Of a stretch of DNA of 64,000 nt, positions 24,060 through 38,519 are shown piece after piece (position 1 is the first letter of the stretch; each line of letters opens with the position of its first letter). The stretch lies in assembly GCA_965203495.1 (NCBI GenBank), contig CBDBDB010000007.1:324959-388958 (forward strand), given 5' to 3'. This DNA is from Candidatus Multivorans sp. GTDB lineage: Bacteria; Acidobacteriota; Thermoanaerobaculia; Multivoradales; Multivoraceae. The notes beneath the pieces are model-generated. The model was not told the origin of the DNA and did no database searches. It saw only the letters and a program-made list of their open reading frames with translations. A program made the translations under genes and the position numbers.

Positions 24060-24180
24060 ATCGTAGCACGGTGTTGGGACAGCGGGGATGTCCCGTCGGT
24101 TGTTGAACTTTGGGAGTAGGGTGGCGGCTCTCCGGCCCGATGAGCGGGCCGGTCTCAGCGAAAGAAAGGAGACGCCACCC

Positions 24181-25119
24181 ATGGCCAATCATCGCAGTCG
24201 GGAAGGGAATCGGCAAGAGAGAAGGAGCACTCCGAGCAGTCCGTCGTCGGGATCGGGGCTTGGTCTGTTGGAGTCATTGCCCTCGTTGGTCAACGGTCTG
24301 TCGAGCTTTCAGGAGCTGTGCGTCGAGACAGGCCGGTCTACGTTGGCCCGGTTGATGGAGGAGGAGCGGGAGTCGCGGTGCGGCGCGAAGGGTCGTCACC
24401 AGGATGCTCGTTCGGTGTGGCGTGCGGGCAGTGCTCCGAGCCAAGTGACGCTGGGCGGGGCCCGGATCGAGATTCAGCGTCTGCGGGTACGGGGTCCGGA
24501 GGGCGAGGTGCGTCTCGAGTCGTTCGAGTGGGCGGCGTCTCGCGACGCGATGGACCGTCACACGATGGAAGCGATTGCGTCGGGCGTGTCGACGCGGAAC
24601 TACCTGCGGTCGCTGGACACGGCGGCCGCGGGTTCGGACCGTCGTTCGGCATCGCGGAGTTCGGTGTCTCGGCGCTTCAAGGCGCTGTCGGCGCGGCAGA
24701 TGGAGAAGTTCCTGTCGTCGTCGCTGGAAGACGAGGACATCCGCGTGGTGTGCGTGGACGCGAAGTACATCGGTGGCCACTGCATTCTGATCGCCTTGGG
24801 CGTTTCGTCGTCCGGTCACAAGCGGGTTCTTGGCCTTCGCGAGGGTTCGACGGAGAACACGGCGGTGGTCCGCGCTCTTCTCGCCGACCTGGTGGAGCGG
24901 GGCCTCTCGACGGCGAAGCCGTTGCTGTTCGTCATCGACGGCAGCAAGGCCCTGCGCCGCGCAATCAAGGAGGTCTTCGGCGACGCCGCGACGGTGCAGC
25001 GCTGCCAGGTCCACAAGGCCCGGAACGTCGAAGAGCATCTGCCCGAAGAGAGGCGAGCCTCGATTCGCCGGGCGCTCCGCAAGGCCTGGGACAGCAAATC
25101 CGCCAAGACGGCCTTGAGG
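24181..25119 (+). pseudogene. IS256-family transposase, 5' part of copy 1 (interrupted after ...KSAKTAL)
   Basis: The sequence matches the full-length copy at 25218-26501. The reading frame runs into the left end of the inserted IS copy 2. Confidence 0.8.
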
Positions 25120-26558
25120 GGGGATGTCCCGCCGGCTGTTGAACTTTGGGAGTAGGGTGGCGGCTCACCCGGCCCGGTGAGCGGGCCGGTTCCAGCGAAA
25201 GAAAGGAGACGCCACCCATGGCGAATCATGGCAGTCGGGAAGGGAATCGGCAAGAGAGAAGGAGCAGCTCGTCGTCGGGGTCGGGGCTTGGTCTGTTGGA
25301 GGCATCGTCCTCGTTGTTCGACGGTCTGTCGAGCTTTCAGGATCTGTGCGTTGAGACAGGCCGTTCTGCCTTGGCGCAGTTGATGGAGAAGGAGCGGGAG
25401 TTGCGGTGCGGGGCGAAGGGTCGTCACCAGGATGCTCGTTCGGTGTGGCGCGCGGGCAGCGCTCCGAGTCAGGTGACGCTGGGCGGCGCCCGGATGGAGA
25501 TTCAGCGTCTGCGGATACGGGGTCCGGAGGGCGAGGTGCGTCTCGAGTCGTTCGAGTGGGCGTCGTCTCGCGACGCGATGGACCGTCACACGATGGAAGC
25601 GATCGCGTCGGGCGTGTCGACGCGGAACTACCTGCGGTCGCTGGACACGGCGGCCGCGGGTTCGGACCGTCGTTCGGCTTCCAGGAGTTCGGTGTCTCGT
25701 CGCTTCAAGGCGCTGTCGATGCGGCAGATGGAGAAGTTCCTGTCGTCGTCGCTGGAAGACGAGGACATCCGCGTGTTGTGCGTGGACGCGAAGTACATCG
25801 GTGGCCACTGCATTCTGATCGCCTTGGGCGTTTCGTCGTCCGGTCACAAGCGGGTTCTTGGCCTTCGCGAGGGTTCGACGGAGAACACGGCGGTGGTCCG
25901 CGCTCTTCTCGCCGACCTGGTGGAGCGGGGCCTTTCGACGGCGAAGCCGTTGCTGTTCGTCATCGACGGCAGCAAGGCCCTGCGCCGCGCGATCAGGGAG
26001 GTCTTCGGCGACGCCGCGACGGTGCAGCGCTGCCAGGTCCACAAGGCCCGGAACGTCGAGGAACACCTGCCCGAAGAGAAGCGAGCCTCGATTCGCCGGG
26101 CGCTCCGCAAGGCCTGGGACAGCAAATCCGCCAAGACGGCCTTGAGGCGTCTGCGGCAGCTCGCCAGTCATCTCGAGCGGGAGCACCCCGGCGCAGCGGC
26201 CTCCCTACGGGAAGGCATGGAGGAGACCGTCACCGTGCTCGAACTCGGCCTCGCCGGAGCTCTCCAGAAGACCATGCGCAGCACCAATCCGATCGAGAGC
26301 CTCAACAGCTCCGTCGGGCGCTACACCCGCAACGTCAAGCGCTGGCGGGGCGGCGCCATGATCCAGCGCTGGGTCGCCGCAGCCCTCGTCGATGCGCAAT
26401 CACGCTTCCACCGCGTCAGAGGCTACCGAGACATGCCAGAACTCATCCGTGCTCTCGAACGACGAGCACGTCACGTTGACCACCAAACCAAGGCCGCTTA
26501 ACATTCTTCAACACACACGAGCCGCCATCCGAAGTTCAACAGAAAACGGGACAATCCC
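25120..26558 (+). mobile_element. IS256-family IS, copy 2, nested inside copy 1; 8-bp TSD CCTTGAGG
   Basis: CCTTGAGG is at 25112-25119 and at 26559-26566. Both terminal inverted repeats are present. The transposase gene is intact. Confidence 0.8.
25218..26501 (+). CDS. IS256-family (Mutator-like) transposase, intact
   Basis: The 427-aa product carries the DDE-region blocks VLCVDAKYIGGH, FVIDGSKALRRAI and QRCQVHKARNV. SD GAAAGGAGA precedes the ATG. Confidence 0.85.
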   Translation: MANHGSREGNRQERRSSSSSGSGLGLLEASSSLFDGLSSFQDLCVETGRSALAQLMEKERELRCGAKGRHQDARSVWRAGSAPSQVTLGGARMEIQRLRIRGPEGEVRLESFEWASSRDAMDRHTMEAIASGVSTRNYLRSLDTAAAGSDRRSASRSSVSRRFKALSMRQMEKFLSSSLEDEDIRVLCVDAKYIGGHCILIALGVSSSGHKRVLGLREGSTENTAVVRALLADLVERGLSTAKPLLFVIDGSKALRRAIREVFGDAATVQRCQVHKARNVEEHLPEEKRASIRRALRKAWDSKSAKTALRRLRQLASHLEREHPGAAASLREGMEETVTVLELGLAGALQKTMRSTNPIESLNSSVGRYTRNVKRWRGGAMIQRWVAAALVDAQSRFHRVRGYRDMPELIRALERRARHVDHQTKAA

Positions 26559-27184: not shown

Positions 27185-27640
27185 TCAAGGAATCCGGTCA
27201 TAGCTCTGCAAGTGGCCATCGAGCGCCCAGATGCGGACGCGGCGGCTCCTGTGCCGACTGCACTCGGTCTCCCAAGCCTTGATGATCGACAGATCGCTCA
27301 GGTCCGGGCCTCTCTTGGCGTGATCCGGAAAGTCGTCAAGCCATTCTTCGAGTTGTCGTTCGTCCGGGAACCGAATCGGCACCCAAGGGGCCTCTCCCTT
27401 CAGAGCCTCACGAATGCTGTTGCGAAACACCTCGGCATACCGTCGCCGGAGCCCGCCGCTCCGGAGATCGGCGATGTGATCGCCAGTTTCAAAGATCGCT
27501 GCCAGTGGCAGAAGAAGGCTGGCACGAGCATCAAGCAATGCGCCGAACTCCGCAAGGACCTTTTCGCGGTCCTGATTGAACGATGGAACGTCGAGCACGT
27601 TGAGCAGAACGCTCGTGTCCACGATAACGACCGCCGACAT
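27185..27640 (-). CDS. PIN-like domain protein (putative nuclease effector), partner of upstream ATPase
   Basis: The N-terminal strand VVIVDTSVLLNVLD is present. Acidic positions E51, D97/D100 and D138 (IWALDGHL) are spaced like the PIN catalytic residues. It starts 6 bp after the ATPase stop on the same strand. Confidence 0.5.
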   Translation of the reverse strand: MSAVVIVDTSVLLNVLDVPSFNQDREKVLAEFGALLDARASLLLPLAAIFETGDHIADLRSGGLRRRYAEVFRNSIREALKGEAPWVPIRFPDERQLEEWLDDFPDHAKRGPDLSDLSIIKAWETECSRHRSRRVRIWALDGHLQSYDRIP

Positions 27641-27646
27641 CGCCGA

Positions 27647-28945
27647 CTAGTCCGCCTGCGTCCTGATCTTGTTCAGCCAGGCGTGGGCGCGTCGGCGGCG
27701 TTCTTCCGGCGTCGGCCGGAGCTTCACGATTCGATCAAGAATTCCCTGCGTCAGGAGATGGCCGACGGCGCCTTGGGCGATGAGTTCGGGATAGTCCGGG
27801 AGGTCGGCAAGACGCTGGAGGCAACTGGCGCCGGTCGTCGGGTCCCGGTAGCAGAACACGACGTTCGGCACTGCGTCGTTCGGCAATGCGTCGAGCAGGG
27901 CGGGGTTGTGGCTGCTGATGAGCACTCGGAGGTTGCGCCGTTGGGCAACCGTGGAGAGTCGGTCCAGCATCAACTCCGCGCGGCTTGGGTGCACGCCGTT
28001 GTCGATCTCCTCGATCACGACGATGCTGCCCTCGGGCGCGGACAGTACCGCGGCGGCGATGCCGAGAACGCGGAGAGTTCCATCGGACAGCAAGGCTGCG
28101 TCGTACTCCGTCCGCCTCCCGCCAAAGGTCTCGGTCAGCTTGACCATGGCCTCGTTGCGCGGAGTCTCGATGAAGCCGATGTTCGTGATGTCCTGCTCCG
28201 GCAGGGCCTTGACGAAGTGGAGCAGCTCGGCCTCGGTATGGGTCTCCTGACAGAGGTTGAACAACACGCCGGAGAGATTCGTTCCGTGGCCGCTCAGCGT
28301 CCGCTCGGTCTTGAAGCTGTAGGCTCGCATGGCTGACGGTTGCGGGTCGAGGAACACGATGTTCGACAGCCAGCTCTGATACCGGGTTGTCACTTCGGGG
28401 ATCACCCGTTGCGCCAGTTTCTGGCGTTGCGCGAATGGCGCCGAACTCTGGAGCTGGAGCAGCACGGCCATCTGGTCGGTGCATGTGACCTGAGGCTTCA
28501 TGCCGCCGCGCGCGAAGTTGTTGTACGCGACGCGAATGTCTCCGCCAGACTCTTGTGAAGATACGACCTCGAAGAGCGGGACGCGTTCGGACGGACCGTC
28601 AAGTCGTTCTTCCGTGATGTGGAGATCCTCGTCGGCTCGTCGCTCGAGCGTCACGGAGTATCGATTCCATTTCGGTTCCGTCGTCATGCACGACAGCGAG
28701 AACCCCTGGCGGCCTCCGTGGCCGAGATCGTTCACCGTTCCCCGGATGGCGTGAGCGCCGTCCTGAAGCGCGTATCGAATGGAACCGAGCTTGTTGCCCT
28801 GGGCGAGCCAGGAGAGGAAACGGAGAGCCTCGACGGCGTTGCTCTTGCCGGAGGCGTTCGCTCCGACCAGAACCGTCAGCGGCCCGAGCTTCAGCGTCGC
28901 TTCCTCGTAGCTCTTGAAGTCCTTTATCGTGAAGCTGGACAGCAT
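27647..28945 (-). CDS. ABC/SMC-type AAA15/AAA21-like ATPase (defence-associated ATPase family)
   Basis: Walker A VLVGANASGKSN is present. The ABC signature-like LSDGTLRVL is present. Walker B IVVIEEIDNGVHP and the H-loop LISSHNPALL are present. SD GGGAGGAGG precedes the ATG. Confidence 0.75.
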   Translation of the reverse strand: MLSSFTIKDFKSYEEATLKLGPLTVLVGANASGKSNAVEALRFLSWLAQGNKLGSIRYALQDGAHAIRGTVNDLGHGGRQGFSLSCMTTEPKWNRYSVTLERRADEDLHITEERLDGPSERVPLFEVVSSQESGGDIRVAYNNFARGGMKPQVTCTDQMAVLLQLQSSAPFAQRQKLAQRVIPEVTTRYQSWLSNIVFLDPQPSAMRAYSFKTERTLSGHGTNLSGVLFNLCQETHTEAELLHFVKALPEQDITNIGFIETPRNEAMVKLTETFGGRRTEYDAALLSDGTLRVLGIAAAVLSAPEGSIVVIEEIDNGVHPSRAELMLDRLSTVAQRRNLRVLISSHNPALLDALPNDAVPNVVFCYRDPTTGASCLQRLADLPDYPELIAQGAVGHLLTQGILDRIVKLRPTPEERRRRAHAWLNKIRTQAD

Positions 28946-29058
28946 CTTCCGCCTCCTCCCGGACCCTCGACGGGTGTGGCCAAGCCTACCGACGAACCGG
29001 CACGCCTGGCCAGGGGTACGGCGTCAGGCTCGCGGAGCTCGGTCCGGGGTCAGCCGGG

Positions 29059-31950
29059 TCACACTCGGAACACCTTCATGACTTCGTCGCCCAGGTGATT
29101 GATCACCTTGACCGCGATGCGCCCGGAGACGGGCTTCGGGAAGGGGCGGGAGGTGTCGCTGTGCAGCGTGGCCCATGCGTCGGCGTCGATCTCGGCCTTC
29201 AAGGTGGTCCTGAGCGACTTGTAGGGGTCGCCGGCGCCGAGGAAGTAGGCCTGGCGGACGAAGAAGCTTTCTTCGTTGTAGTCGGTGTCCACGAACCAGC
29301 AGGCGATGCCTTCGGGTCCGTCGCTGCGGACTTCGCCGGAGGATGGGTCGAAGACGTCGACGCCCTTGATCCTGACCCGGCGCCAGTCCGGCTCGCCGTC
29401 GGGACCGGTTGCGGTCTCGATGTCGATGTCGGGCTCGCCGAAGATGACGAACAGGTTGGCGGCGTTCGTCTTCCTGAAGTCGTCGGCCATGTGCAGGTCG
29501 GCGTTCATCCGCGCCTTGAGGATGGGGACGCGGCCGAGCTTCGTGAACTCGGACACGTGGACGTCGAAGTTGAAGGCGCAGGCGATCAGGACGTCGAATC
29601 CGGCGTCGGCCGCCTCGCGCGCGGCGCTGACCAGGTCCGGCCGGGAGACGGTTCCGAACTCCGGACCGATGAAGACGCCGGCGCGCTGTTCCTTGCCCTC
29701 GCCGTCGACGTAGCGGCCCTCGGCGCAGACCAGCTCGCCGGGCCGCGGTTCCAGCGACGAAAACGCGATCCGGCCGGCCTTGCTCGCCTGCTGAACGCCG
29801 GCGGTGCGCAGGTTCTCGAGAATCACGTGGCCGAACTCGCTGCGGCACACGTCGGCGCCCCCGTCGTCACTCGCCCGCGGCTCGGCCACCAGAAGTTCGT
29901 CCCGCTCGTCCAAGGCGGCCGGGCGATGCGGCGAAACGCTCTCGACGGTAAAGGGTCCGGCGACGCGGACTTTCCGGTTGTCCTGGAAGGGCTTGTCGTG
30001 GAGGTGTTCGTAGTCGGCCTTCGCGGCGATGCAGGCGTCGATCTCGCTCTGGCGGGCGATCCGGGCCTGCCAGAAGCGCTCGTGCGCCTCGCGCGCGGCC
30101 CGGTTCCAGTCGTCTTCCGGCTCTCGGGGGACTTCCCACTCCAGGAAGCCGTTTGCGGGCGCCGGTTCGCCGGAGGGCAGGTCGACCGTGCTTCCCGCCG
30201 GCGCCTCGAAATCGATCTGCTGGCCCTTGCGTCCGCCGGCCTGGACGACGAACGGCGCGGCGTGACCCCGCAGGGCGCGGTTGAGGTCCGACAGGGCGTT
30301 CTCGACCGCCGGCTGCAGGCGCTCGTGGATCACGTCGATCTCGGCGTTGTTGGCGATGGACTTGAGCGTGACGTGGGGGACGCGCTCGACCACGAAGCCG
30401 TGCCGGATGTCGTTGTACGTGGGCGCCTCCGACGGCGCCTTGCGGGCGAGCGCGGCCTCCTTGAGCTGGCCCTCGCGGCTGTCGGCGAGCAGGTACCAGG
30501 GGTAGCGGGCGCCCATGATGCGGGCCCGGGCCAGGGCGAGCGCCACCCGGGACGTGTCGATCGTGATCCAGCGGCGGCCCCATTGCTCGGCGACGTAGGC
30601 CGTCGTGCCGGAACCGCAGGTCGGGTCGAGCACCAGGTCGCCGGGGTCCGTCGTCATGAGGATGCAGCGCTGGATTACCTTGGGGAGAGTCTGTACAACG
30701 TAGGTCTTGTTCGCCGCATAGCCGGCTGTGCCGGTGTCGTTCCACTGGTTCGTGATCCGAACCACGGGGAAGTCATCCAGGAATCGAAGATACGCAGGTG
30801 TATTCCCCTGATAGCCCAAACGTGCCGCCTTGCTCAAACGCTCTATTCCGTCGGCGGTCGTCTTCCAGTGCATTCCCGGTTTGATGGAAAATATCCTTCC
30901 CATGAGTGCAACCGAGTGGGTTTTGGCCGCAGCGCCTTGCGAGGTCAGATCAGCTGACCTCGCAAGGCGCTGCGGCCAAAATCGCGGGAAATTGCCACTC
31001 AGATTGTGTAGCTCCCGATACGACGTCGCCCCTTGTAGACCGGCCTCTTTCTTGTTCGTCAACAGCCGGTACTTCAAGGCAGAGGACTTCCCGTACCAGA
31101 GCAGATAGTCGGACACGTTAGCCAGGCGCATGGCAGCGAAGCCAGACGTCTTGGAGAACGACACTTGAGAGACAAAGTTCGCCTCTCCAAACACCTCGTC
31201 CATCAACGCCCGCACGCGGTGCACGTTCTCGTCGCCGATCTGCACGAACACGGATCCGCTCTCGGTCAGCAGGTCCCGCGCCGCGGTCAGTCGGTCGCGC
31301 AGATAGGTCAGGTAGGAGTGAATGCCGTCCCGCCAGGTGTCCCGGAAGGCCTTGACCTGCTCCGGTTCCCGGGTGACGTGGTCCGCCTTGCCGTCCTTCA
31401 CGTCCCGGCTGGTCGTGGACCACTGGAAGTTCGAGTTGAACCGGATGCCGTAGGGCGGGTCGATGTAGATGGTCTGCACCTTGCCGCGCAGGCCCTCGCG
31501 TTCGGCCAGCGACGCCATGACCTGCAGGGAATCGCCCAGCACCATGCGGTTCGACCAGTTCGCGTCGTGCCGGTAGAACTCCGTTCTGGCGTCGTCGTCC
31601 GGCAGGCCGTTGAAGTCGGCGAAGAGGTCGGGCTGGACGGCCCGGTCTCCGGCCTTCCGTTCGCGGGCCCGGCGGCTGGTCCGCTCCAGATCGTCGATCA
31701 GCACCTTGGGGTGCACCTTCTCCTGGATGAAAAGGGGCGGCGTCGGCACGACGAGGTCGGACCAGTCCTCCATGTCCTTGCCGCGCCAGATCAGCTGCGG
31801 GTCGAGGTCCGGGTTGCGCCGCTCGTACGCGACCCGGATCGGGTCCCGGTCGTACGCGTGCATCACCGGCTCGTACTCGGCGGTGGGAATGTTGCGCCGC
31901 GTCGCTTCGCGGTGGATCAGCGTCTCGACCTTCCGGGCTTTCTTCGCCAT
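29059..31950 (-). CDS. mod: Type III restriction-modification methyltransferase (Mod), N6-adenine beta-class
   Basis: Motif IV IYIDPPYG lies upstream of motif I VLDPTCGSGTTAYVA (beta-class order). A central variable region lies between them. The start is set at MAKKARKVETL. Confidence 0.85.
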   Translation of the reverse strand: MAKKARKVETLIHREATRRNIPTAEYEPVMHAYDRDPIRVAYERRNPDLDPQLIWRGKDMEDWSDLVVPTPPLFIQEKVHPKVLIDDLERTSRRARERKAGDRAVQPDLFADFNGLPDDDARTEFYRHDANWSNRMVLGDSLQVMASLAEREGLRGKVQTIYIDPPYGIRFNSNFQWSTTSRDVKDGKADHVTREPEQVKAFRDTWRDGIHSYLTYLRDRLTAARDLLTESGSVFVQIGDENVHRVRALMDEVFGEANFVSQVSFSKTSGFAAMRLANVSDYLLWYGKSSALKYRLLTNKKEAGLQGATSYRELHNLSGNFPRFWPQRLARSADLTSQGAAAKTHSVALMGRIFSIKPGMHWKTTADGIERLSKAARLGYQGNTPAYLRFLDDFPVVRITNQWNDTGTAGYAANKTYVVQTLPKVIQRCILMTTDPGDLVLDPTCGSGTTAYVAEQWGRRWITIDTSRVALALARARIMGARYPWYLLADSREGQLKEAALARKAPSEAPTYNDIRHGFVVERVPHVTLKSIANNAEIDVIHERLQPAVENALSDLNRALRGHAAPFVVQAGGRKGQQIDFEAPAGSTVDLPSGEPAPANGFLEWEVPREPEDDWNRAAREAHERFWQARIARQSEIDACIAAKADYEHLHDKPFQDNRKVRVAGPFTVESVSPHRPAALDERDELLVAEPRASDDGGADVCRSEFGHVILENLRTAGVQQASKAGRIAFSSLEPRPGELVCAEGRYVDGEGKEQRAGVFIGPEFGTVSRPDLVSAAREAADAGFDVLIACAFNFDVHVSEFTKLGRVPILKARMNADLHMADDFRKTNAANLFVIFGEPDIDIETATGPDGEPDWRRVRIKGVDVFDPSSGEVRSDGPEGIACWFVDTDYNEESFFVRQAYFLGAGDPYKSLRTTLKAEIDADAWATLHSDTSRPFPKPVSGRIAVKVINHLGDEVMKVFRV
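30922..30980. repeat. Perfect 27-bp inverted repeat with 5-nt loop (TTTGGCCGCAGCGCCTTGCGAGGTCAG-ATCAG-CTGACCTCGCAAGGCGCTGCGGCCAAA) inside mod coding sequence
   Basis: It was read directly from the sequence. It sits in a roughly 300-bp low-GC segment (30830-31130) corresponding to the Mod target-recognition region. The frame is maintained. Confidence 0.9.
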
Positions 31951-31954
31951 GTCG

Positions 31955-32335
31955 CTAGCGGTCCTCCGCGTCGGGGATGTGAGCGATGCCGAGCTCCTCG
32001 GCGAGCGCACGGAGTTTCCGGTCCGCCGTCCACAGTGTCGCGTTTCCGTCCGCCAGAACCGCGCCGAGGAGGTTGGCGTCCATGTAGCCGATGCCGCGTC
32101 CCATCCAGGAGTGTCGTTCGATCAGAGCGAGGAGGTCGTCGCCAGAGAGTGTCGCGAGTCGCGGGAAACCCCTCATTCGCTCGAGGAAGCCATCGCGCTC
32201 GGGCAGGTGGCCACATGCCAGTTCGCCGATGACCATGGCATGGGATAGCACCTCCCGGGCCTCCACGCGGTCCCGCAACTCCCGGCTGGGGGCACGCACG
32301 TTGTCAATCCAGATCGACGTGTCCACCAGGATCAT
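31955..32335 (-). CDS. vapC: VapC-type PIN-domain toxin
   Basis: The N-terminus MILVDTSIWID is classic VapC. The protein is 126 aa. The ATG overlaps the res TGA (ATGA). Confidence 0.8.
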   Translation of the reverse strand: MILVDTSIWIDNVRAPSRELRDRVEAREVLSHAMVIGELACGHLPERDGFLERMRGFPRLATLSGDDLLALIERHSWMGRGIGYMDANLLGAVLADGNATLWTADRKLRALAEELGIAHIPDAEDR

Positions 32336-35300
32336 CCCGCTTCCGCGCTCCGGCGTCGCGGAATGTACTTGGCGTCGGGCATCGAGCCGCCGATGGCGCC
32401 AAGGAACCGCGCGACCTCGCTCGCCCGCTCTTCGCTGGCGAGTTCGTCCAGGGCGGTCGCGATCCCGGCGTCTAGGTCGTGTTCCATTTCAGACGGCTCC
32501 CGCAGTTCAAGGTACGCCCAACGACCATGGCGGCCGACCGCGTTGACCGCGGGAATCCAGCAGGTTTCCATGGCTTCCGCCTTCGCCCGGGATTCTTCTC
32601 CTCGCATGCCCTTGACCTCCACCACGACGTGCAGGGGTTCCTCCTTGCCGAGGCCGTGGTCGAGGTCGACGATGAAGTCGGGGGCGTAGCGGCGGGGGGC
32701 GCCGCCGAACCGGTACGGCACGTCGAAGCCGAGGTTCCGGTTCTTCACCCAGGCCAGCACGCGCGGGTGCGCGTCGAGAACGCGGCAGAACTCGCCTTCC
32801 CACGTGCTGTCGAGAATCGCCCAGTTCAGATGGCAGCGACGGCCGGTCCGGTAGCGCTGCGTGCGCGACGTCGTGAAGTGCACGCTGCGGGTCGTGCCGA
32901 CCGGGTTCCAGGGATCGAGCAAGGCCCTGACCGGCTGCTTGGCCGACCGGCGCCGCAGTTCGGCGCGGGTGACGGCGGCCGCAATCTTCTCGCAGGCGCG
33001 GTCGGCGAGCTCCGCCATCATCAGCTGCGCCGGAACCGTGTTTCCCTTGCACGTCAGGCAGGCATCGAGCCATTCGCCGGCGATGCGCTTCAACTGGCCG
33101 AACAGGTGCAGGTCCGGATCTTCGTTCGCGTCGCGCCAGTGCTTGAACAGCAGCCGCTTCGTCAACTCGTAGAGCACGGTGGACCGGCGGACCCCGTTCA
33201 GCCGCTCGGGGCCGAGGTCGTGGCCTTCGCCGATGATGCCCTGATTGTGCGTGATCGTCGGTCCCACGAGTTCCGGCGTCAGCTCGAGCGCCGAGTCCTC
33301 CGTGAACGCGGCGGAGAGGCGGTCGTTCGGCAGATCGACGCGGTAGCCGGCCACCCGCGGGAAGCGGATCTCCGCGTCGTCCCGCTCCGGCGAGAGGGCC
33401 TGGACTTGCACCGTCTCGGCGGGCGGCTGCGGCGGCGCCGCGACGGGCCTGGCGGTGAAGTCGAAGGGCACGCCGAACACGTCCGCGTACTCGACGTCGA
33501 ACAGGCCGCCGTCGTTCAGTTCGTAGGACTGCCGGCGCAGGGAGCGGCCGATCACCTGTTCGCAGAGCAGCTGCGTCCCGAAGGCCCGCAGGCCGAGGAT
33601 GTGAGTGACATTGCTGGCGTCCCAGCCTTCGGTCAGCATGGCGACGGAGACGACGCAGCGGATGGCGCCGCCCAGCCGGCCGGCCTTGCCGACGGTGTTC
33701 ATCGCTTCGCGCAGCAGGTCCTGGTCCGACAGGTTCTCGGCTTGCCGGCGATCTCCCGTCCGTTCGACGATCTCCCGGCGGAAACGCTCGATCTCGTCCG
33801 CGGCGGCGGCGCGGAAGCTCCGGTCGAGCGCGTCGCCGGATTCGAGCTGCCGGCTGTCGATGAGCAGCGTGCGGGGTCTGGGCAGTGGCGTGCCGTCCGC
33901 GTCGAAGTTGCGGAACAGCGGCAGGCGACCGTTGTGGAAGGTCCCCGCGCCGTTCCCGGACCCGCGTGGGAAGCCCGCGATGTAATCGTGGACCAGCTTC
34001 GACGCGGCGGTGTTGTTGCACACGACGATGAAGCAGGGCGGCGTCTCGATGCCGGCCTCCTCCCACAGGGTGAACGTCTTTTCGTAGTGTCCGTAGAGAG
34101 CCTCCAAGGCCGTCTGCAGCTCGGTCGGCAGCGACATCGGGTCGGCGGCCGCGCCGCTTGCGCCGCCGCCGCGGCCCTGCTTCGGCATCTTCCCGCCGAT
34201 GCGCTCCCAGAGGTTCCGGAACATCGGCATCTCGGCGCCGGGGACGTTGTCCACCACCGGCACGCGCGGGACCTTGACGATGCCGCACTCGATCGCGTCC
34301 ATCAGGGAGAAGTCGCTGACGGTCCACGGGAAGAGCGTGCCCTCCGCGTAGCCCGAGCCGCGCAGGAAGAACGGCGTGGCCGACAGGTCGATCACCCGCT
34401 TGATTCCCAGTCTGCGCGCGGTCGCCTCCAGACCGGAGATCCACACGTGCGCCGCCTCCCGGTTGCGCTTCGCCTCGTGGCGGTCGTCGCCGGTCAGCCG
34501 CCCTTCCTCGTCTTCGCCGGCCTTCTCGCGATAGCAGTGGTGCGCCTCGTCGTTCAGGACGAGGATGCCCCTCATCGCCATCAGTTCCGGCATCGCGCGG
34601 GCCAGCATCTCGCCTTCCGTTTCGCGGACTGCGAGGTCCGGGCCGCGGCCCTGGAGCAGGGCGCGGCTCCCCTTGGCCAGCTTCATCGTCTCGCGGCGCC
34701 CGAACGCGTGGTAGTTGACGATCACGATCCTCGCCCTGTCGATGTCGCGCAGCATGTCCGGGGGCGCGAGTTCGCGGCTGGCGTAGTAGCTGTCGGGGTC
34801 GTTCGGCTGGAGCACCCGCAGGCGGTCGCGGATGGTGATGCCCGGCGCGACGACGAGAAAGCCGCGAGTGAACCGCCGGCTCGCGGGGCGGCGAACGGCG
34901 TTCACCGTCTGCCAGGCGATGAGCATGGCCATGACGGTCGTCTTGCCGGCGCCGGTCGCGAGCTTGAGCGCTAGGCGCGAGAGGCCCGGGTTCGCCTGCT
35001 CGCTGGCCGCTTCGATCCGCTCCAGGAAGCCGCGGCCGCGCTTGCCCATGGCGGGCGCGACTTCGGTCAGCCAGATGGCGGTCTCGACGGCTTCGACCTG
35101 GCAGAAGAACGGGCGGATGCCGCTGAACCGATGGTGGCGCCAGTGCTTGAGCAGACGGGCTGTTTCGGGCGTCACGCGCCACTGCGACTCCGGCAGCGCG
35201 CGCCAGGCGGCGATCGCCCGGCGCAGGCCGCCGATCAGCTCGGTCAGCTCGTACTGCTGACCGCCTGGCGTCTCGAGCGCGTCGATGTCCGCGTCCAGGG

Positions 35301-35478
35301 TGAGTCGCCGCTGCGTCTTGCGGCCGGTCTTTCTCGCCCTGGGAATCGGCGAGACGAAGGAAGCCGGGCGACGCCCGGGGGCGATTCTCTCAGTCGGCTG
35401 GCGGTTCTCGTCCAGCACCCAGTGCCGGCCCGGCAGTTCGTAGGGCGAATTGAGGATAGGGGACCGGTGGAACGTCAT
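32332..35478 (-). CDS. res: Type III restriction endonuclease Res subunit (helicase + PD-(D/E)xK) with C-terminal extension
   Basis: DEAH-box LVLNDEAHHC is present. Walker A GAGKTTVM is present. The C-terminal nuclease motif YAPDFIVDL...VVVEVKG is present. The start is set at MTFHRSPILNSPYEL, and the upstream ORF extension is judged spurious. Confidence 0.8.
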   Translation of the reverse strand: MTFHRSPILNSPYELPGRHWVLDENRQPTERIAPGRRPASFVSPIPRARKTGRKTQRRLTLDADIDALETPGGQQYELTELIGGLRRAIAAWRALPESQWRVTPETARLLKHWRHHRFSGIRPFFCQVEAVETAIWLTEVAPAMGKRGRGFLERIEAASEQANPGLSRLALKLATGAGKTTVMAMLIAWQTVNAVRRPASRRFTRGFLVVAPGITIRDRLRVLQPNDPDSYYASRELAPPDMLRDIDRARIVIVNYHAFGRRETMKLAKGSRALLQGRGPDLAVRETEGEMLARAMPELMAMRGILVLNDEAHHCYREKAGEDEEGRLTGDDRHEAKRNREAAHVWISGLEATARRLGIKRVIDLSATPFFLRGSGYAEGTLFPWTVSDFSLMDAIECGIVKVPRVPVVDNVPGAEMPMFRNLWERIGGKMPKQGRGGGASGAAADPMSLPTELQTALEALYGHYEKTFTLWEEAGIETPPCFIVVCNNTAASKLVHDYIAGFPRGSGNGAGTFHNGRLPLFRNFDADGTPLPRPRTLLIDSRQLESGDALDRSFRAAAADEIERFRREIVERTGDRRQAENLSDQDLLREAMNTVGKAGRLGGAIRCVVSVAMLTEGWDASNVTHILGLRAFGTQLLCEQVIGRSLRRQSYELNDGGLFDVEYADVFGVPFDFTARPVAAPPQPPAETVQVQALSPERDDAEIRFPRVAGYRVDLPNDRLSAAFTEDSALELTPELVGPTITHNQGIIGEGHDLGPERLNGVRRSTVLYELTKRLLFKHWRDANEDPDLHLFGQLKRIAGEWLDACLTCKGNTVPAQLMMAELADRACEKIAAAVTRAELRRRSAKQPVRALLDPWNPVGTTRSVHFTTSRTQRYRTGRRCHLNWAILDSTWEGEFCRVLDAHPRVLAWVKNRNLGFDVPYRFGGAPRRYAPDFIVDLDHGLGKEEPLHVVVEVKGMRGEESRAKAEAMETCWIPAVNAVGRHGRWAYLELREPSEMEHDLDAGIATALDELASEERASEVARFLGAIGGSMPDAKYIPRRRSAEAG
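32335..32487 (-). other. In-frame 51-codon RHH/antitoxin-like tail of res (MEHDLDAGIATALDELASEERASEVARFLGAI...), possible internally initiated VapB-like antitoxin
   Basis: No separate antitoxin ORF lies upstream of vapC. The tail has an RHH-like pattern. An internal ATG is preceded by GGGAG. Confidence 0.3.
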
Positions 35479-35559
35479 GGCGTCTCGAGCAGAGGCCCGG
35501 AGCTTATTGGACGGCGGTTTCTGGTGCTGCCGGGGGGTGCCGGCGGTGAGAGCGCCGCA

Positions 35560-35960
35560 TCCCTCGTCTCGGGTGTGCGTGGCGTGGTGGCGATCGGCGA
35601 GTTCGCGTCTCGCCTGACGCAGAGGCAGTTGTCCGCGGTGAGCGCGTTCTTCAGTCCGAGTCGGAAGCGGTACGTCGCGCCGTCTCGGACGTCGATCCAC
35701 CGGATACTGACGGCGCTTGATCCAGAGGTTGTCGACCGGGCGGTTCGGGGTTTCGCCGCCCAGTCGCGGCGCCCCCGCGGCGCGTTGGCAGTTGACCGCA
35801 AGTCGGTCGACGGCGCGCACTGGCGCCATCTCCGCGGACCCGGTTCAAAAGCCGATCTCAGGGCCGCGCACGGGACGCCCCGCGAAGCGGTGGGCAAGCT
35901 CAGCCCGCGAGCGCCCCCGGGCGCGAACCTATACGAATTTCTGAAGCTTCCAACGGTTTA
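35560..35960 (+). pseudogene. Possible ISAs1-family transposase N-terminal fragment
   Basis: The translation ...SPSRKRYVAPSRTSIHRILTAL...ALAVDRKSVDGAHW loosely resembles the ISAs1 N-terminal region (AIDGKTLRGS block). The frame continues from the off-frame ORF 35131-35961. Confidence 0.25.
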
Positions 35961-36028
35961 GCAGCCCGTGGCAAAAGTGGATTCGGCCCGGAGTGCCACT
36001 GCTGCTTCGAGGCTGAGTCTGGGCAGCG

Positions 36029-37072: not shown

Positions 37073-38519
37073 GGGATTGTCCCGTTTTCTGTTGAACTTC
37101 GGATGGCGGCTCGTGTGTGTTGATGAATGTTAAGCGGCCTTGGTTTGGTGGTCAACGTGCCCTGCTCGTCGTTCGAGGGCGCGGATGAGTTTGGGCATGT
37201 CTCGGTAGCCTCTGACGCGGTGGAAGCGTGATTGAGCATCGATGAGAGCGGCAGCGACCCAGCGCTGGATCATGGAGCCGCCCCGCCAGCGCTTGACGTT
37301 GCGGGTGTAGCGCCCGACGGAGCTGTTGAGGCTCTCGATCGGATTGGTGCTGCGCATGGTCTTCTGGAGAGCTCCGGCGAGGCCGAGTTCGAGCACGGTG
37401 ACGGTCTCCTCCATGCCTTCCCGGAGGGAGGCCGCTGCGCCGGGGTGCTCCCGCTCCAGATGACTGGCGATCTGCCGCAGACGCCTCAAGGCCGTCTTGG
37501 CGGATTTGCTGTCCCAGGCCTTGCGGAGCGCCCGGCGAATCGAGGCTCGCCTCTCTTCGGGCAGATGCTCTTCGACGTTCCGGGCCTTGTGGACCTGGCA
37601 GCGCTGCACCGTCGCGGCGTCGCCGAAGACCTCCTTGATTGCGCGGCGCAGGGCCTTGCTGCCGTCGATGACGAACAGCAACGGCTTCGCCGTCGAGAGG
37701 CCCCGCTCCACCAGGTCGGCGAGAAGAGCGCGGACCACCGCCGTGTTCTCCGTCGAACCCTCGCGAAGGCCAAGAACCCGCTTGTGACCGGACGACGAAA
37801 CGCCCAAGGCGATCAGAATGCAGTGGCCACCGATGTACTTCGCGTCCACGCACACCACGCGGATGTCCTCGTCTTCCAGCGACGACGACAGGAACTTCTC
37901 CATCTGCCGCGCCGACAGCGCCTTGAAGCGCCGAGACACCGAACTCCGCGATGCCGAACGACGGTCCGAACCCGCGGCCGCCGTGTCCAGCGACCGCAGG
38001 TAGTTCCGCGTCGACACGCCCGACGCAATCGCTTCCATCGTGTGACGGTCCATCGCGTCGCGAGACGCCGCCCACTCGAACGACTCGAGACGCACCTCGC
38101 CCTCCGGACCCCGTACCCGCAGACGCTGAATCTCGATCCGGGCCCCGCCCAGCGTCACTTGGCTCGGAGCACTGCCCGCACGCCACACCGAACGAGCATC
38201 CTGGTGACGACCCTTCGCGCCGCACCGCGACTCCCGCTCCTCCTCCATCAACCGGGCCAACGTAGACCGGCCTGTCTCGACGCACAGCTCCTGAAAGCTC
38301 GACAGACCGTTGACCAACGAGGGCAATGACTCCAACAGACCAAGCCCCGATCCCGACGACGGACTGCTCGGAGTGCTCCTTCTCTCTTGCCGATTCCCTT
38401 CCCGACTGCGATGATTGGCCATGGGTGGCGTCTCCTTTCTTTCGCTGAGACCGGCCCGCTCATCGGGCCGGAGAGCCGCCACCCTACTCCCAAAGTTCAA
38501 CAACCGACGGGACATCCCC
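37073..38519 (-). mobile_element. IS256-family IS, copy 3 (inverted relative to copies 1/2); 9-bp TSD CTCCGTCAC
   Basis: CTCCGTCAC is at 37064-37072 and at 38520-38528. The terminal inverted repeats are GGGATTGTCCC... and ...GGGACATCCCC. Confidence 0.8.
37130..38422 (-). CDS. IS256-family transposase, intact (copy 3)
   Basis: Its N-terminal 300 aa are identical to the copy 1 fragments. Its C-terminus matches the copy 1 3' part. Confidence 0.85.
   Translation of the reverse strand: MANHRSREGNRQERRSTPSSPSSGSGLGLLESLPSLVNGLSSFQELCVETGRSTLARLMEEERESRCGAKGRHQDARSVWRAGSAPSQVTLGGARIEIQRLRVRGPEGEVRLESFEWAASRDAMDRHTMEAIASGVSTRNYLRSLDTAAAGSDRRSASRSSVSRRFKALSARQMEKFLSSSLEDEDIRVVCVDAKYIGGHCILIALGVSSSGHKRVLGLREGSTENTAVVRALLADLVERGLSTAKPLLFVIDGSKALRRAIKEVFGDAATVQRCQVHKARNVEEHLPEERRASIRRALRKAWDSKSAKTALRRLRQIASHLEREHPGAAASLREGMEETVTVLELGLAGALQKTMRSTNPIESLNSSVGRYTRNVKRWRGGSMIQRWVAAALIDAQSRFHRVRGYRDMPKLIRALERRAGHVDHQTKAA

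Follow-up and report, generated by a model that had tools for sequence, protein, structure and literature searches.

The window analysed here is a 64,000-nt stretch of contig CBDBDB010000007.1 from Candidatus Multivorans sp., and all positions are counted from its first letter. On its minus strand lies the gene mod (29059..31950), predicted to encode a Type III-like DNA methyltransferase, and the target recognition domain (TRD) of this gene contains a perfect 61-bp palindrome whose two arms enclose a loop of 5 nt. The stem is conserved through compensated changes and uses Watson-Crick pairs only, and the loop occurs in both orientations, even between proteins that are otherwise identical. The palindrome is probably native to one TRD allele family of this Type III-like mod and conserved within it. 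From the pattern of sequence changes, it is also likely that the stem is kept perfect by template switching and that the loop inverts often, which would make the element a recombinase-free, two-state flip-flop inside a gene.

The inverted repeat consists of two arms of 28 nt each (30921-30948 and 30954-30981), which are 100% complementary and separated by 5 nt. The original prediction had placed a hairpin with 27-bp arms at 30922-30980, in frame within mod between motif IV and motif I. Both points hold, and the actual element is one base longer on each side and encodes residues 324-343 of Mod (FWPQRLARSADLTSQGAAAK), at the TRD position of beta-class enzymes. In the sense strand (the minus strand of the window), the 5' arm (30954..30981) encodes F324-W-P-Q-R-L-A-R-S332 and the first base of Ala333; the loop (30949..30953) reads CTGAT, which is ATCAG on the plus strand; and the 3' arm (30921..30948) encodes L335-T-S-Q-G-A-A-A-K343 and the first base of Thr344, with the near-invariant LTSQ motif at 30937-30948. 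Together with the last G of the arm, the loop of the window gives GCT GAT, that is, Ala333-Asp334 (the AD state), and the inverted loop would give GAT CAG, that is, Asp-Gln (the DQ state). The predicted folds of the hairpin are highly stable both as DNA (-46.8 kcal/mol, z -11.3) and as RNA (-69.9 kcal/mol, z -10.1), and in either case 0 of 200 shuffled sequences were as stable. In the 64-kb window, the arm sequence has no second match at up to 3 mismatches (0 expected by chance), and the element is the only perfect inverted repeat whose arms reach 13 nt or more with a loop no longer than 20 nt. In addition, the centre of the hairpin (30941-30961) holds an 8-bp perfect palindrome, TCAGCTGA, which lies off the main axis and is present in both loop orientations, as is a GATC site; the 3' arm also begins with the CTG of the loop. 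These three features could be relevant to the site of template switches.

The DNA comparison comprised the window and 13 homologous mod genes or gene fragments (14 sequences, from hosts of 48-66% GC), and the palindrome was found at identical codon positions in all 14. Perfect stems of 22-30 bp are present in 11 of them, and the stem length drifts between lineages; besides the window and its closest homologue, L001, nine sequences have perfect stems of 22-27 bp. L004 and L005 carry one internal C·C mismatch each (the L005 contig has a GC content of 48%), and in L002 the palindrome has decayed to 18 of 28 Watson-Crick pairs. L001 shares 87% amino-acid identity and approximately 85% DNA identity with the window; all 61 nt of the palindrome are the same in both, and substitutions directly flank it on both sides. 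The perfect stem of L001 (6971-7035) reaches 30 bp, and the two pairs beyond those of the window come from the GC...GC flanking bases. A metagenome scan with the TRD alignment recovered two distant loci, both with a palindrome bearing one mismatch; an alignment-based protein search returned 11 fragments only, and a representative library at 50% identity added no members, since it collapses this Mod family. Four plasmid homologues with other TRD alleles (L013-L016) have no comparable hairpin at the same place. LTSQ is present in the Sphingobium copy (L013) without a comparable palindrome there; the Shinella and Chlorohelix copies are without LTSQ in the TRD, and the Rhizobium copy has VTSS instead.

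The two arms have changed together. In the 14-sequence alignment, 88.5% of the cells are paired, and 12 of the 28 pairs are altered on both sides (37 cells), often with an amino acid replaced on both arms. The covariation score is 0.277 compared to 0.102 in shuffled alignments, none of which reached the observed value (0/500), and shifting the partners by 1-3 columns lowers it to 0.03-0.08. Examples of compensated changes are CAG>AAG (Gln>Lys) with GCG>TCG (Ala>Ser), AGG>ACG (Arg>Thr) with ACC>ACG, GCG>GGG with TCG>TCC, CGC>CAC with GGC>GGT, CGC>AGC with GCG>TCG, and GAG>GAT with GCT>GAT. When synonymous codons were resampled from the usage of each gene itself (20,000 trials), the mean number of Watson-Crick pairs was 10-16 and the maximum 23 of 28, compared to 22-28 observed. 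The palindrome is therefore not explained by chance or by constraint on the amino acids, both of which this null model rejects. Among homologues, codon identity is approximately 0.2-0.5 in the TRD on either side and increases to 0.8-1.0 within the hairpin core, and the codons fixed in the hairpin are rare ones, namely CTT, TCA and CAA.

Watson-Crick complementarity and loop orientation

In the hairpin, codon position 1 pairs with codon position 1, and codon position 2 pairs with codon position 3 of the other arm; consequently, the two peptide segments encoded by the arms are forced to co-vary. The 11 sequences with an intact palindrome contain 74 synonymous sites at which a transition would keep a G·U pair, and all 74 are Watson-Crick pairs. 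The Watson-Crick base is kept even where the genes prefer the codon that would give a wobble pair: CAA persists at shares of 0.11-0.35 relative to CAG, and TCA at shares of 0.03-0.38 relative to TCG. Under the codon usage of the genes, the joint probability of this outcome is approximately 1e-25, a value that is uncorrected for shared ancestry. Similarly, the mismatches of the decayed palindrome of L002 (5 G·U and 4 A·C) show no bias toward pairs that are functional in RNA. Because G·U occurs at none of the 74 sites, the constraint is on Watson-Crick complementarity in DNA and not on RNA folding. Such strict complementarity, which holds on both strands, is the expected result of copying one arm from the other.

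Another finding is that the loop is present in two orientations. It reads CTGAT in 7 of the 14 sequences (the window, L001, L002, L006, L009, L010 and L017) and ATCAG, the exact reverse complement, in 6 (L008, L011, L012, L018, L004 and L005); the loop of L007 is GTGAT. L010 and L011 have the same 26-nt arms and opposite loops, that is, the loop has been exchanged for its exact reverse complement with length and arms unchanged. Among 100 proteins of the allele family, 52 are in the DQ state and 45 in the AD state, and GD, TD and SD occur once each. The intermediates AQ and DD are absent from these 100 proteins, and a stepwise route between the two states would need three substitutions. The loop state is uncorrelated with relatedness, and sister sequences differ in it: the fraction of pairs that differ in state is 0.36-0.51 in nearly every identity bin, and the state differs in 3 of 7 protein pairs with at least 99.5% identity.

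The flip is the only difference in two pairs of proteins known from assemblies and not from reads: in P0156 and P0157 (936 aa), residues 335-336 are the only ones to differ, with 934 other residues the same, and P0133 flipped in silico is exactly P0246, which is encoded on a different contig, with 947 other residues the same. P0254 and P0255 differ by the flip and 3 other residues of 1035. An exact look-up of the flipped versions of 10 proteins found one and did not find nine, most lineages having been sampled only once. The flip-only pairs and the near-random distribution of the states imply that the flip outpaces any accepted amino-acid change in a protein of approximately 940 residues. Alternatively, both states coexist in populations, and each assembly picks one.

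The same two positions were compared in the other TRD alleles of the family, where they are occupied by DN (45), GD (12), NP (10), QT (5) and others. Judged by this distribution, the allele-specific dipeptide appears to behave as a specificity determinant would, and DQ resembles DN, the commonest form. The AD and DQ isoforms may differ in activity or specificity.

Mechanism and competing explanations

From the pattern described above, we infer intrastrand template switching, as in quasipalindrome correction, as the process that acts on the palindrome. During replication, one arm would be copied from the other, and the arms would thus be kept Watson-Crick complementary. Through the codon register, the segments FWPQRLARS and LTSQGAAAK would be forced to co-vary, and their synonymous sites would be frozen on rare codons. 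The same process, or the processing of a hairpin or cruciform, may also invert the 5-nt loop with the arms unchanged, which would convert GCT-GAT (Ala-Asp) to GAT-CAG (Asp-Gln) and back just before the near-invariant LTSQ. As a result, one locus could yield two Mod isoforms with no recombinase.

The shape of the element, with long and perfect inverted arms inside a patch of low GC, would by itself favour an inserted mobile hairpin, either repetitive extragenic palindromic (REP)-like or like a miniature inverted-repeat transposable element (MITE), or an inverton driven by an invertase. The original prediction had likewise suggested a REP- or MITE-like in-frame insertion. This suggestion is contradicted both by the alignment of Mod homologues and by the search for further copies. 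The 20 residues encoded by the hairpin align gap-free with 120 homologues and are therefore no insertion; a single TRD allele family is characterised by the motif R-L-x-x-S-x-x-L-T-S-Q-G, and LTSQ occurs in nearly the whole family. Across 185,579 species (one genome each), a 20-mer of the arm matched once, at an unrelated and non-palindromic site, and no other long inverted repeat was found in 264,554 bases of the window and related loci. Two scans of viral contigs were empty, with no match either to a degenerate pattern of the whole hairpin or to the arm 20-mer. An insertion was rejected on these grounds, namely the lack of a gap relative to homologues and the lack of further copies in the window, the related loci, the species genomes and the viral contigs. 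As for an inverton, no recombinase gene is conserved next to mod in 12 neighbourhoods fetched by protein identity, although a recombinase acting in trans is conceivable, and the invertible core of 5 nt is too small for a recombinase synapse. Taken together, a mobile hairpin or an invertase-driven inverton is exceedingly improbable. A regulatory hairpin in the mod mRNA, serving as an RNase III site or as a ribosome pause that tunes Mod relative to Res, would be favoured by the stability of the predicted RNA fold, since the transcript would contain a perfect helix of 28 bp, which is long enough for RNase III. Against it stand the absence of G·U at all of the wobble-permissive synonymous sites and the mismatches of L002, which are not biased to RNA-compatible pairs. 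Furthermore, no Rfam family matches at its gathering score (the only match is to the generic hairpin mir-3155, 38 bits compared to the required 70), and no terminator-like or promoter-like site is present. Selection at the RNA level was rejected on the basis of the wobble test, the lack of a real Rfam match and the lack of such sites, and this explanation is very unlikely.

The remaining alternatives concern the loop and its meaning. It is a realistic possibility that the palindrome is a neutral mutational curiosity, in which the same template-switch mechanism operates, flipping of the loop is incidental, and the two isoforms do not differ in function. The palindrome would then persist only because switching between the arms repairs mismatches more quickly than they arise. 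The L002 lineage has lost the palindrome with its gene intact, the states are split approximately 50:50 as expected for an unbiased and unselected flip, and published work on such patterns argues that they need no adaptive explanation (PMC8604942 and PMC8794818). However, the loop codons are tightly constrained, being AD or DQ in 97 of 100 proteins, the dipeptide is allele-specific in the other TRD types (DN, GD, NP and QT, as counted above), and the palindrome is retained against codon preference in hosts of 48-66% GC. The confinement to AD and DQ and the retention against codon preference favour a useful switch. In its strongest form, this would be a programmed phase-variation device, in which replication-driven loop inversion toggles two specificity-determining residues beside LTSQ and the long perfect arms would persist for their role in setting the switching rate. 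If so, a clonal population would always hold two methylation and restriction specificities or, alternatively, an ON-like DQ state, resembling the family consensus DN, and an altered AD state. This programmed form is unlikely. It is less likely still that the differences in loop orientation are assembly or sequencing artefacts, with a real palindrome in one fixed orientation per genome. In a de Bruijn graph with k below the arm length, a loop can be walked either way, and the two flip-only pairs do stem from different assemblies; however, arms of 22-30 nt are shorter than the final k of common assemblers, many contig names (ptg..., ctg..._15x_l, contig_39) look, by reading of the names, like those of long-read assemblies, and both orientations are fixed in deeply diverged lineages with differing arms.

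Several points weigh against a palindrome that is maintained by template switching and acts as a frequently flipping switch. The decayed palindrome of the L002 lineage (P0083 and P0132) is accompanied by an intact and conserved Mod, which implies that the palindrome is not needed for Mod function. Neutral homogenisation of the arms alone could maintain the stem, and conservation of the stem is thus no proof of a useful switch. The AlphaFold model of Mod has a predicted local distance difference test score (pLDDT) of 53.6 overall and 72-86 in the TRD; residues 329-338 are predicted as a beta strand, and the model is too poor to place residues 333-334 relative to DNA. Finally, the flip-only pairs (P0156/P0157 and P0133/P0246) come from different assemblies of unknown relation, and assembly ambiguity behind them is the main remaining risk.

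The mod operon and its TRD cassette

The product of mod has 963 aa and matches PF01555 (N6_N4_Mtase, E 3.5e-32) over aa 158-472; by its sequence, it is assigned as a Type III-like beta-class DNA methyltransferase with a long C-terminal extension. It is the top match of the PADLOC model MTase_III PDLC03632 (1243.7 bits). Motif IV (DPPY, aa 164-167, 31450-31461) precedes the TRD, and motif I (DPTCGSGTT, aa 442-450, 30601-30627) follows it, an order within the N6_N4_Mtase domain that is the one of Type III Mods. Among solved Type III Mods, phmmer matched 6k0w_B (3.7e-17), EcoP15I Mod 4zcf_A (4.1e-12) and Mbo45V 7dsu_A (1.3e-10); 6k0w, 4zcf and 7dsu are also the top Foldseek entries, with low template modelling scores (TM-scores) owing to the poor Mod model.

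Directly upstream of mod in the same operon lies a res-like helicase gene (32332..35829, minus strand; 1165 aa, ResIII PF04851, E 7.7e-8), whose product matches PADLOC REase_III weakly (34 bits). Its stop codon overlaps the start of a small PIN-like gene (31955..32335, minus strand; 126 aa, PF01850, E 2.5e-4, below the Pfam cutoff) that is located between res and mod. The order res-like helicase, small PIN-like gene, mod is the reverse of that in classical Type III systems. A ResIII gene is upstream of mod in 12 of 12 homologous loci fetched by protein identity, three of which (L018, L008 and L009) are marked weak for ResIII or RE_endonuc, and a nuclease domain (RE_endonuc, weak) was seen in two homologous loci only. 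The slot between res and mod is occupied by differing small toxin-antitoxin-like cassettes across most homologous loci. A PIN gene is found in the window (31955-32335, minus strand, weak), L006 (4573-4998), L007 (4571-5008) and L010 (4616-4996); DUF4160 and DUF2442 in L002 (5371-5998); MNT and HepT in L011 (4346-5000); HicB and HicA in L012 (4555-4961); and an unknown gene of 125-126 aa in L001 and L018, and L008, L009 and L017 have no called gene there. The slot looks like a hotspot for accessory-gene exchange within the operon.

The two genes immediately downstream of mod (27185-28945, minus strand) match a defence pair listed as a candidate in PADLOC, with 622 bits for PDC-M07A (AAA_21/AAA_15 ATPase) and 182 bits for PDC-M07B, which places the mod operon within a defence island. 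Open reading frames of Mutator-family transposases (PF00872) lie on both sides of the defence genes, at 24088-25155 and 25146-26501 on the plus strand and at 37130-38515 on the minus strand, and the two on the plus strand appear to be parts of a single split gene.

The low-GC patch that the original prediction had described as roughly 300 bp long is real, and it is wider than stated: the 200-nt windows across 30700-31199 have a GC content of 0.555-0.585, compared to 0.65-0.745 around them. It contains the TRD cassette (aa 256-400; 30751..31185, minus strand), a mosaic segment with relatives other than those of the remaining gene. The GC content of the cassette is 0.563 compared to 0.682 in the rest of mod, and the GC content at third codon positions (GC3) is 0.69 compared to 0.94 and 0.92 in the flanks, with a similar drop in the homologues examined. 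P0003 is 91% identical to the window Mod in the N-terminal part, 85% in the C-terminal part and 39% in the TRD, and the corresponding values for P0009 are 88%, 84% and 37%; proteins closest in the TRD are less similar in the other parts, and trees of the TRD and of the rest of the protein are discordant. The drop in TRD identity, the discordant trees and the GC3 of the cassette bear out the proposed horizontal swapping of the TRD, which the low-GC patch reflects. The hairpin had also been proposed as a possible recombination hotspot for specificity switching. The hotspot holds for the inversion of its own 5-nt loop and fails for TRD exchange, with no sign of recombination breakpoints at the hairpin. 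Similarly, the idea that the hairpin is a crossover splitting the TRD into exchangeable halves was rejected, because the identities of the two halves correlate (r 0.82) and there are no clear chimeras.

Two other stretches of mod have high codon identity. Around DPPY (about 31410-31490, aa 155-180), the mean is approximately 0.9 among 10 homologues, above that of the hairpin, and the second stretch is at Mod aa 875-900. The high value near DPPY is likely due to a shared bias on two-fold codons; alternatively, conserved DNA may aid cassette recombination at the TRD border. Several near-identical mod copies (P0250, P0252, P0262, P0264, P0266 and P0267, cluster members assessed at the protein level) are truncated or frameshifted, and P0256 and P0257 are one mod copy split in two on a 4.93-Mb contig. 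None of the break points of the truncated or frameshifted copies is at the hairpin, and the broken copies may be long-read indel errors or real pseudogenes.

Comparison with known systems

The known routes to varied specificity of restriction-modification systems are frameshifts in repeat tracts, recombinase-driven shuffling of specificity genes and horizontal swapping of TRDs. The present locus suggests a fourth route, in which a self-maintaining coding palindrome undergoes an enzyme-free loop flip that recodes two residues of the DNA-recognition domain. Even if the isoforms are equivalent, the locus clearly illustrates, in a natural setting, that the secondary structure of DNA can dictate how a protein evolves. 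Owing to its high degree of homoplasy, the loop state would mislead phylogenies and tests of positive selection, and pipelines that search for invertons may well miss loops as small as 5 nt. No account of a comparable palindrome within a mod gene was found in full-text literature searches.

In phasevarions, Type III mod genes switch ON and OFF by frameshifts in simple sequence repeat tracts (PMC5909438). The present gene is likewise a Type III mod open reading frame with stochastic, reversible variation; however, it has no repeat tract, stays in frame in both states and changes two TRD residues. In fact, Tandem Repeats Finder detected no repeat tract in or upstream of mod (29000-36000), where it reported three trivial arrays of 2.2-2.5 copies. 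In Type I systems, whole TRD-encoding segments are exchanged between duplicated, distinct hsdS genes by recombination at inverted repeats (PMC7394358). Inverted repeats vary the specificity part of a restriction-modification system in both cases, but here a single mod gene without a duplicated TRD undergoes a 5-nt change.

Intragenic invertons are also comparable, in that site-specific recombinases invert the DNA between inverted repeats, and the repeat mutated in the published work was 11 nt long (Chanin et al., bioRxiv 10.1101/2023.03.11.532203); methyltransferases are not mentioned in that text. As in these invertons, an inverted repeat within a gene allows one gene to specify two protein versions by inversion, and both orientations were found for the same gene (P0156/P0157 and P0133/P0246, in assemblies and not reads). 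Unlike them, the mod element has a core of 5 nt and arms of 22-30 nt and lacks an associated recombinase. In chloroplast non-coding DNA, minute inversions of hairpin loops were reportedly described by Kelchner and Wendel in 1996 as recurrent, homoplasious and uncorrelated with phylogeny. There, too, a short loop flips between perfect short inverted repeats and its state is independent of phylogeny; however, those inversions lie in non-coding organelle spacers and have no protein consequence, unlike that in mod.

The closest resemblance in pattern is to template switching at quasipalindromes. In inverted repeats, template switching produces perfect stems, multi-base compensatory changes without wobble intermediates, and loop inversions (Monttinen and Loytynoja 2022, PMC8794818), and in yeast coding DNA, homogenisation of arms, inversion of spacers, clustered amino-acid replacements and parallel evolution have been reported (Abraham and Hazkani-Covo 2021, PMC8604942). 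The mod palindrome shares the perfect stem, the compensated changes without G·U, the length-preserving inversion of the loop and the nonsynonymous changes in coding DNA. The cases in PMC8794818 and PMC8604942 have stems of a few to approximately 10 bp and are mostly single events in rRNA or yeast genes; in contrast, the mod palindrome keeps a perfect stem of 22-30 bp at a fixed codon position in many lineages of bacteria, with a loop that is apparently randomised even between identical proteins. In general, all of the patterns observed at this locus fit template switching.

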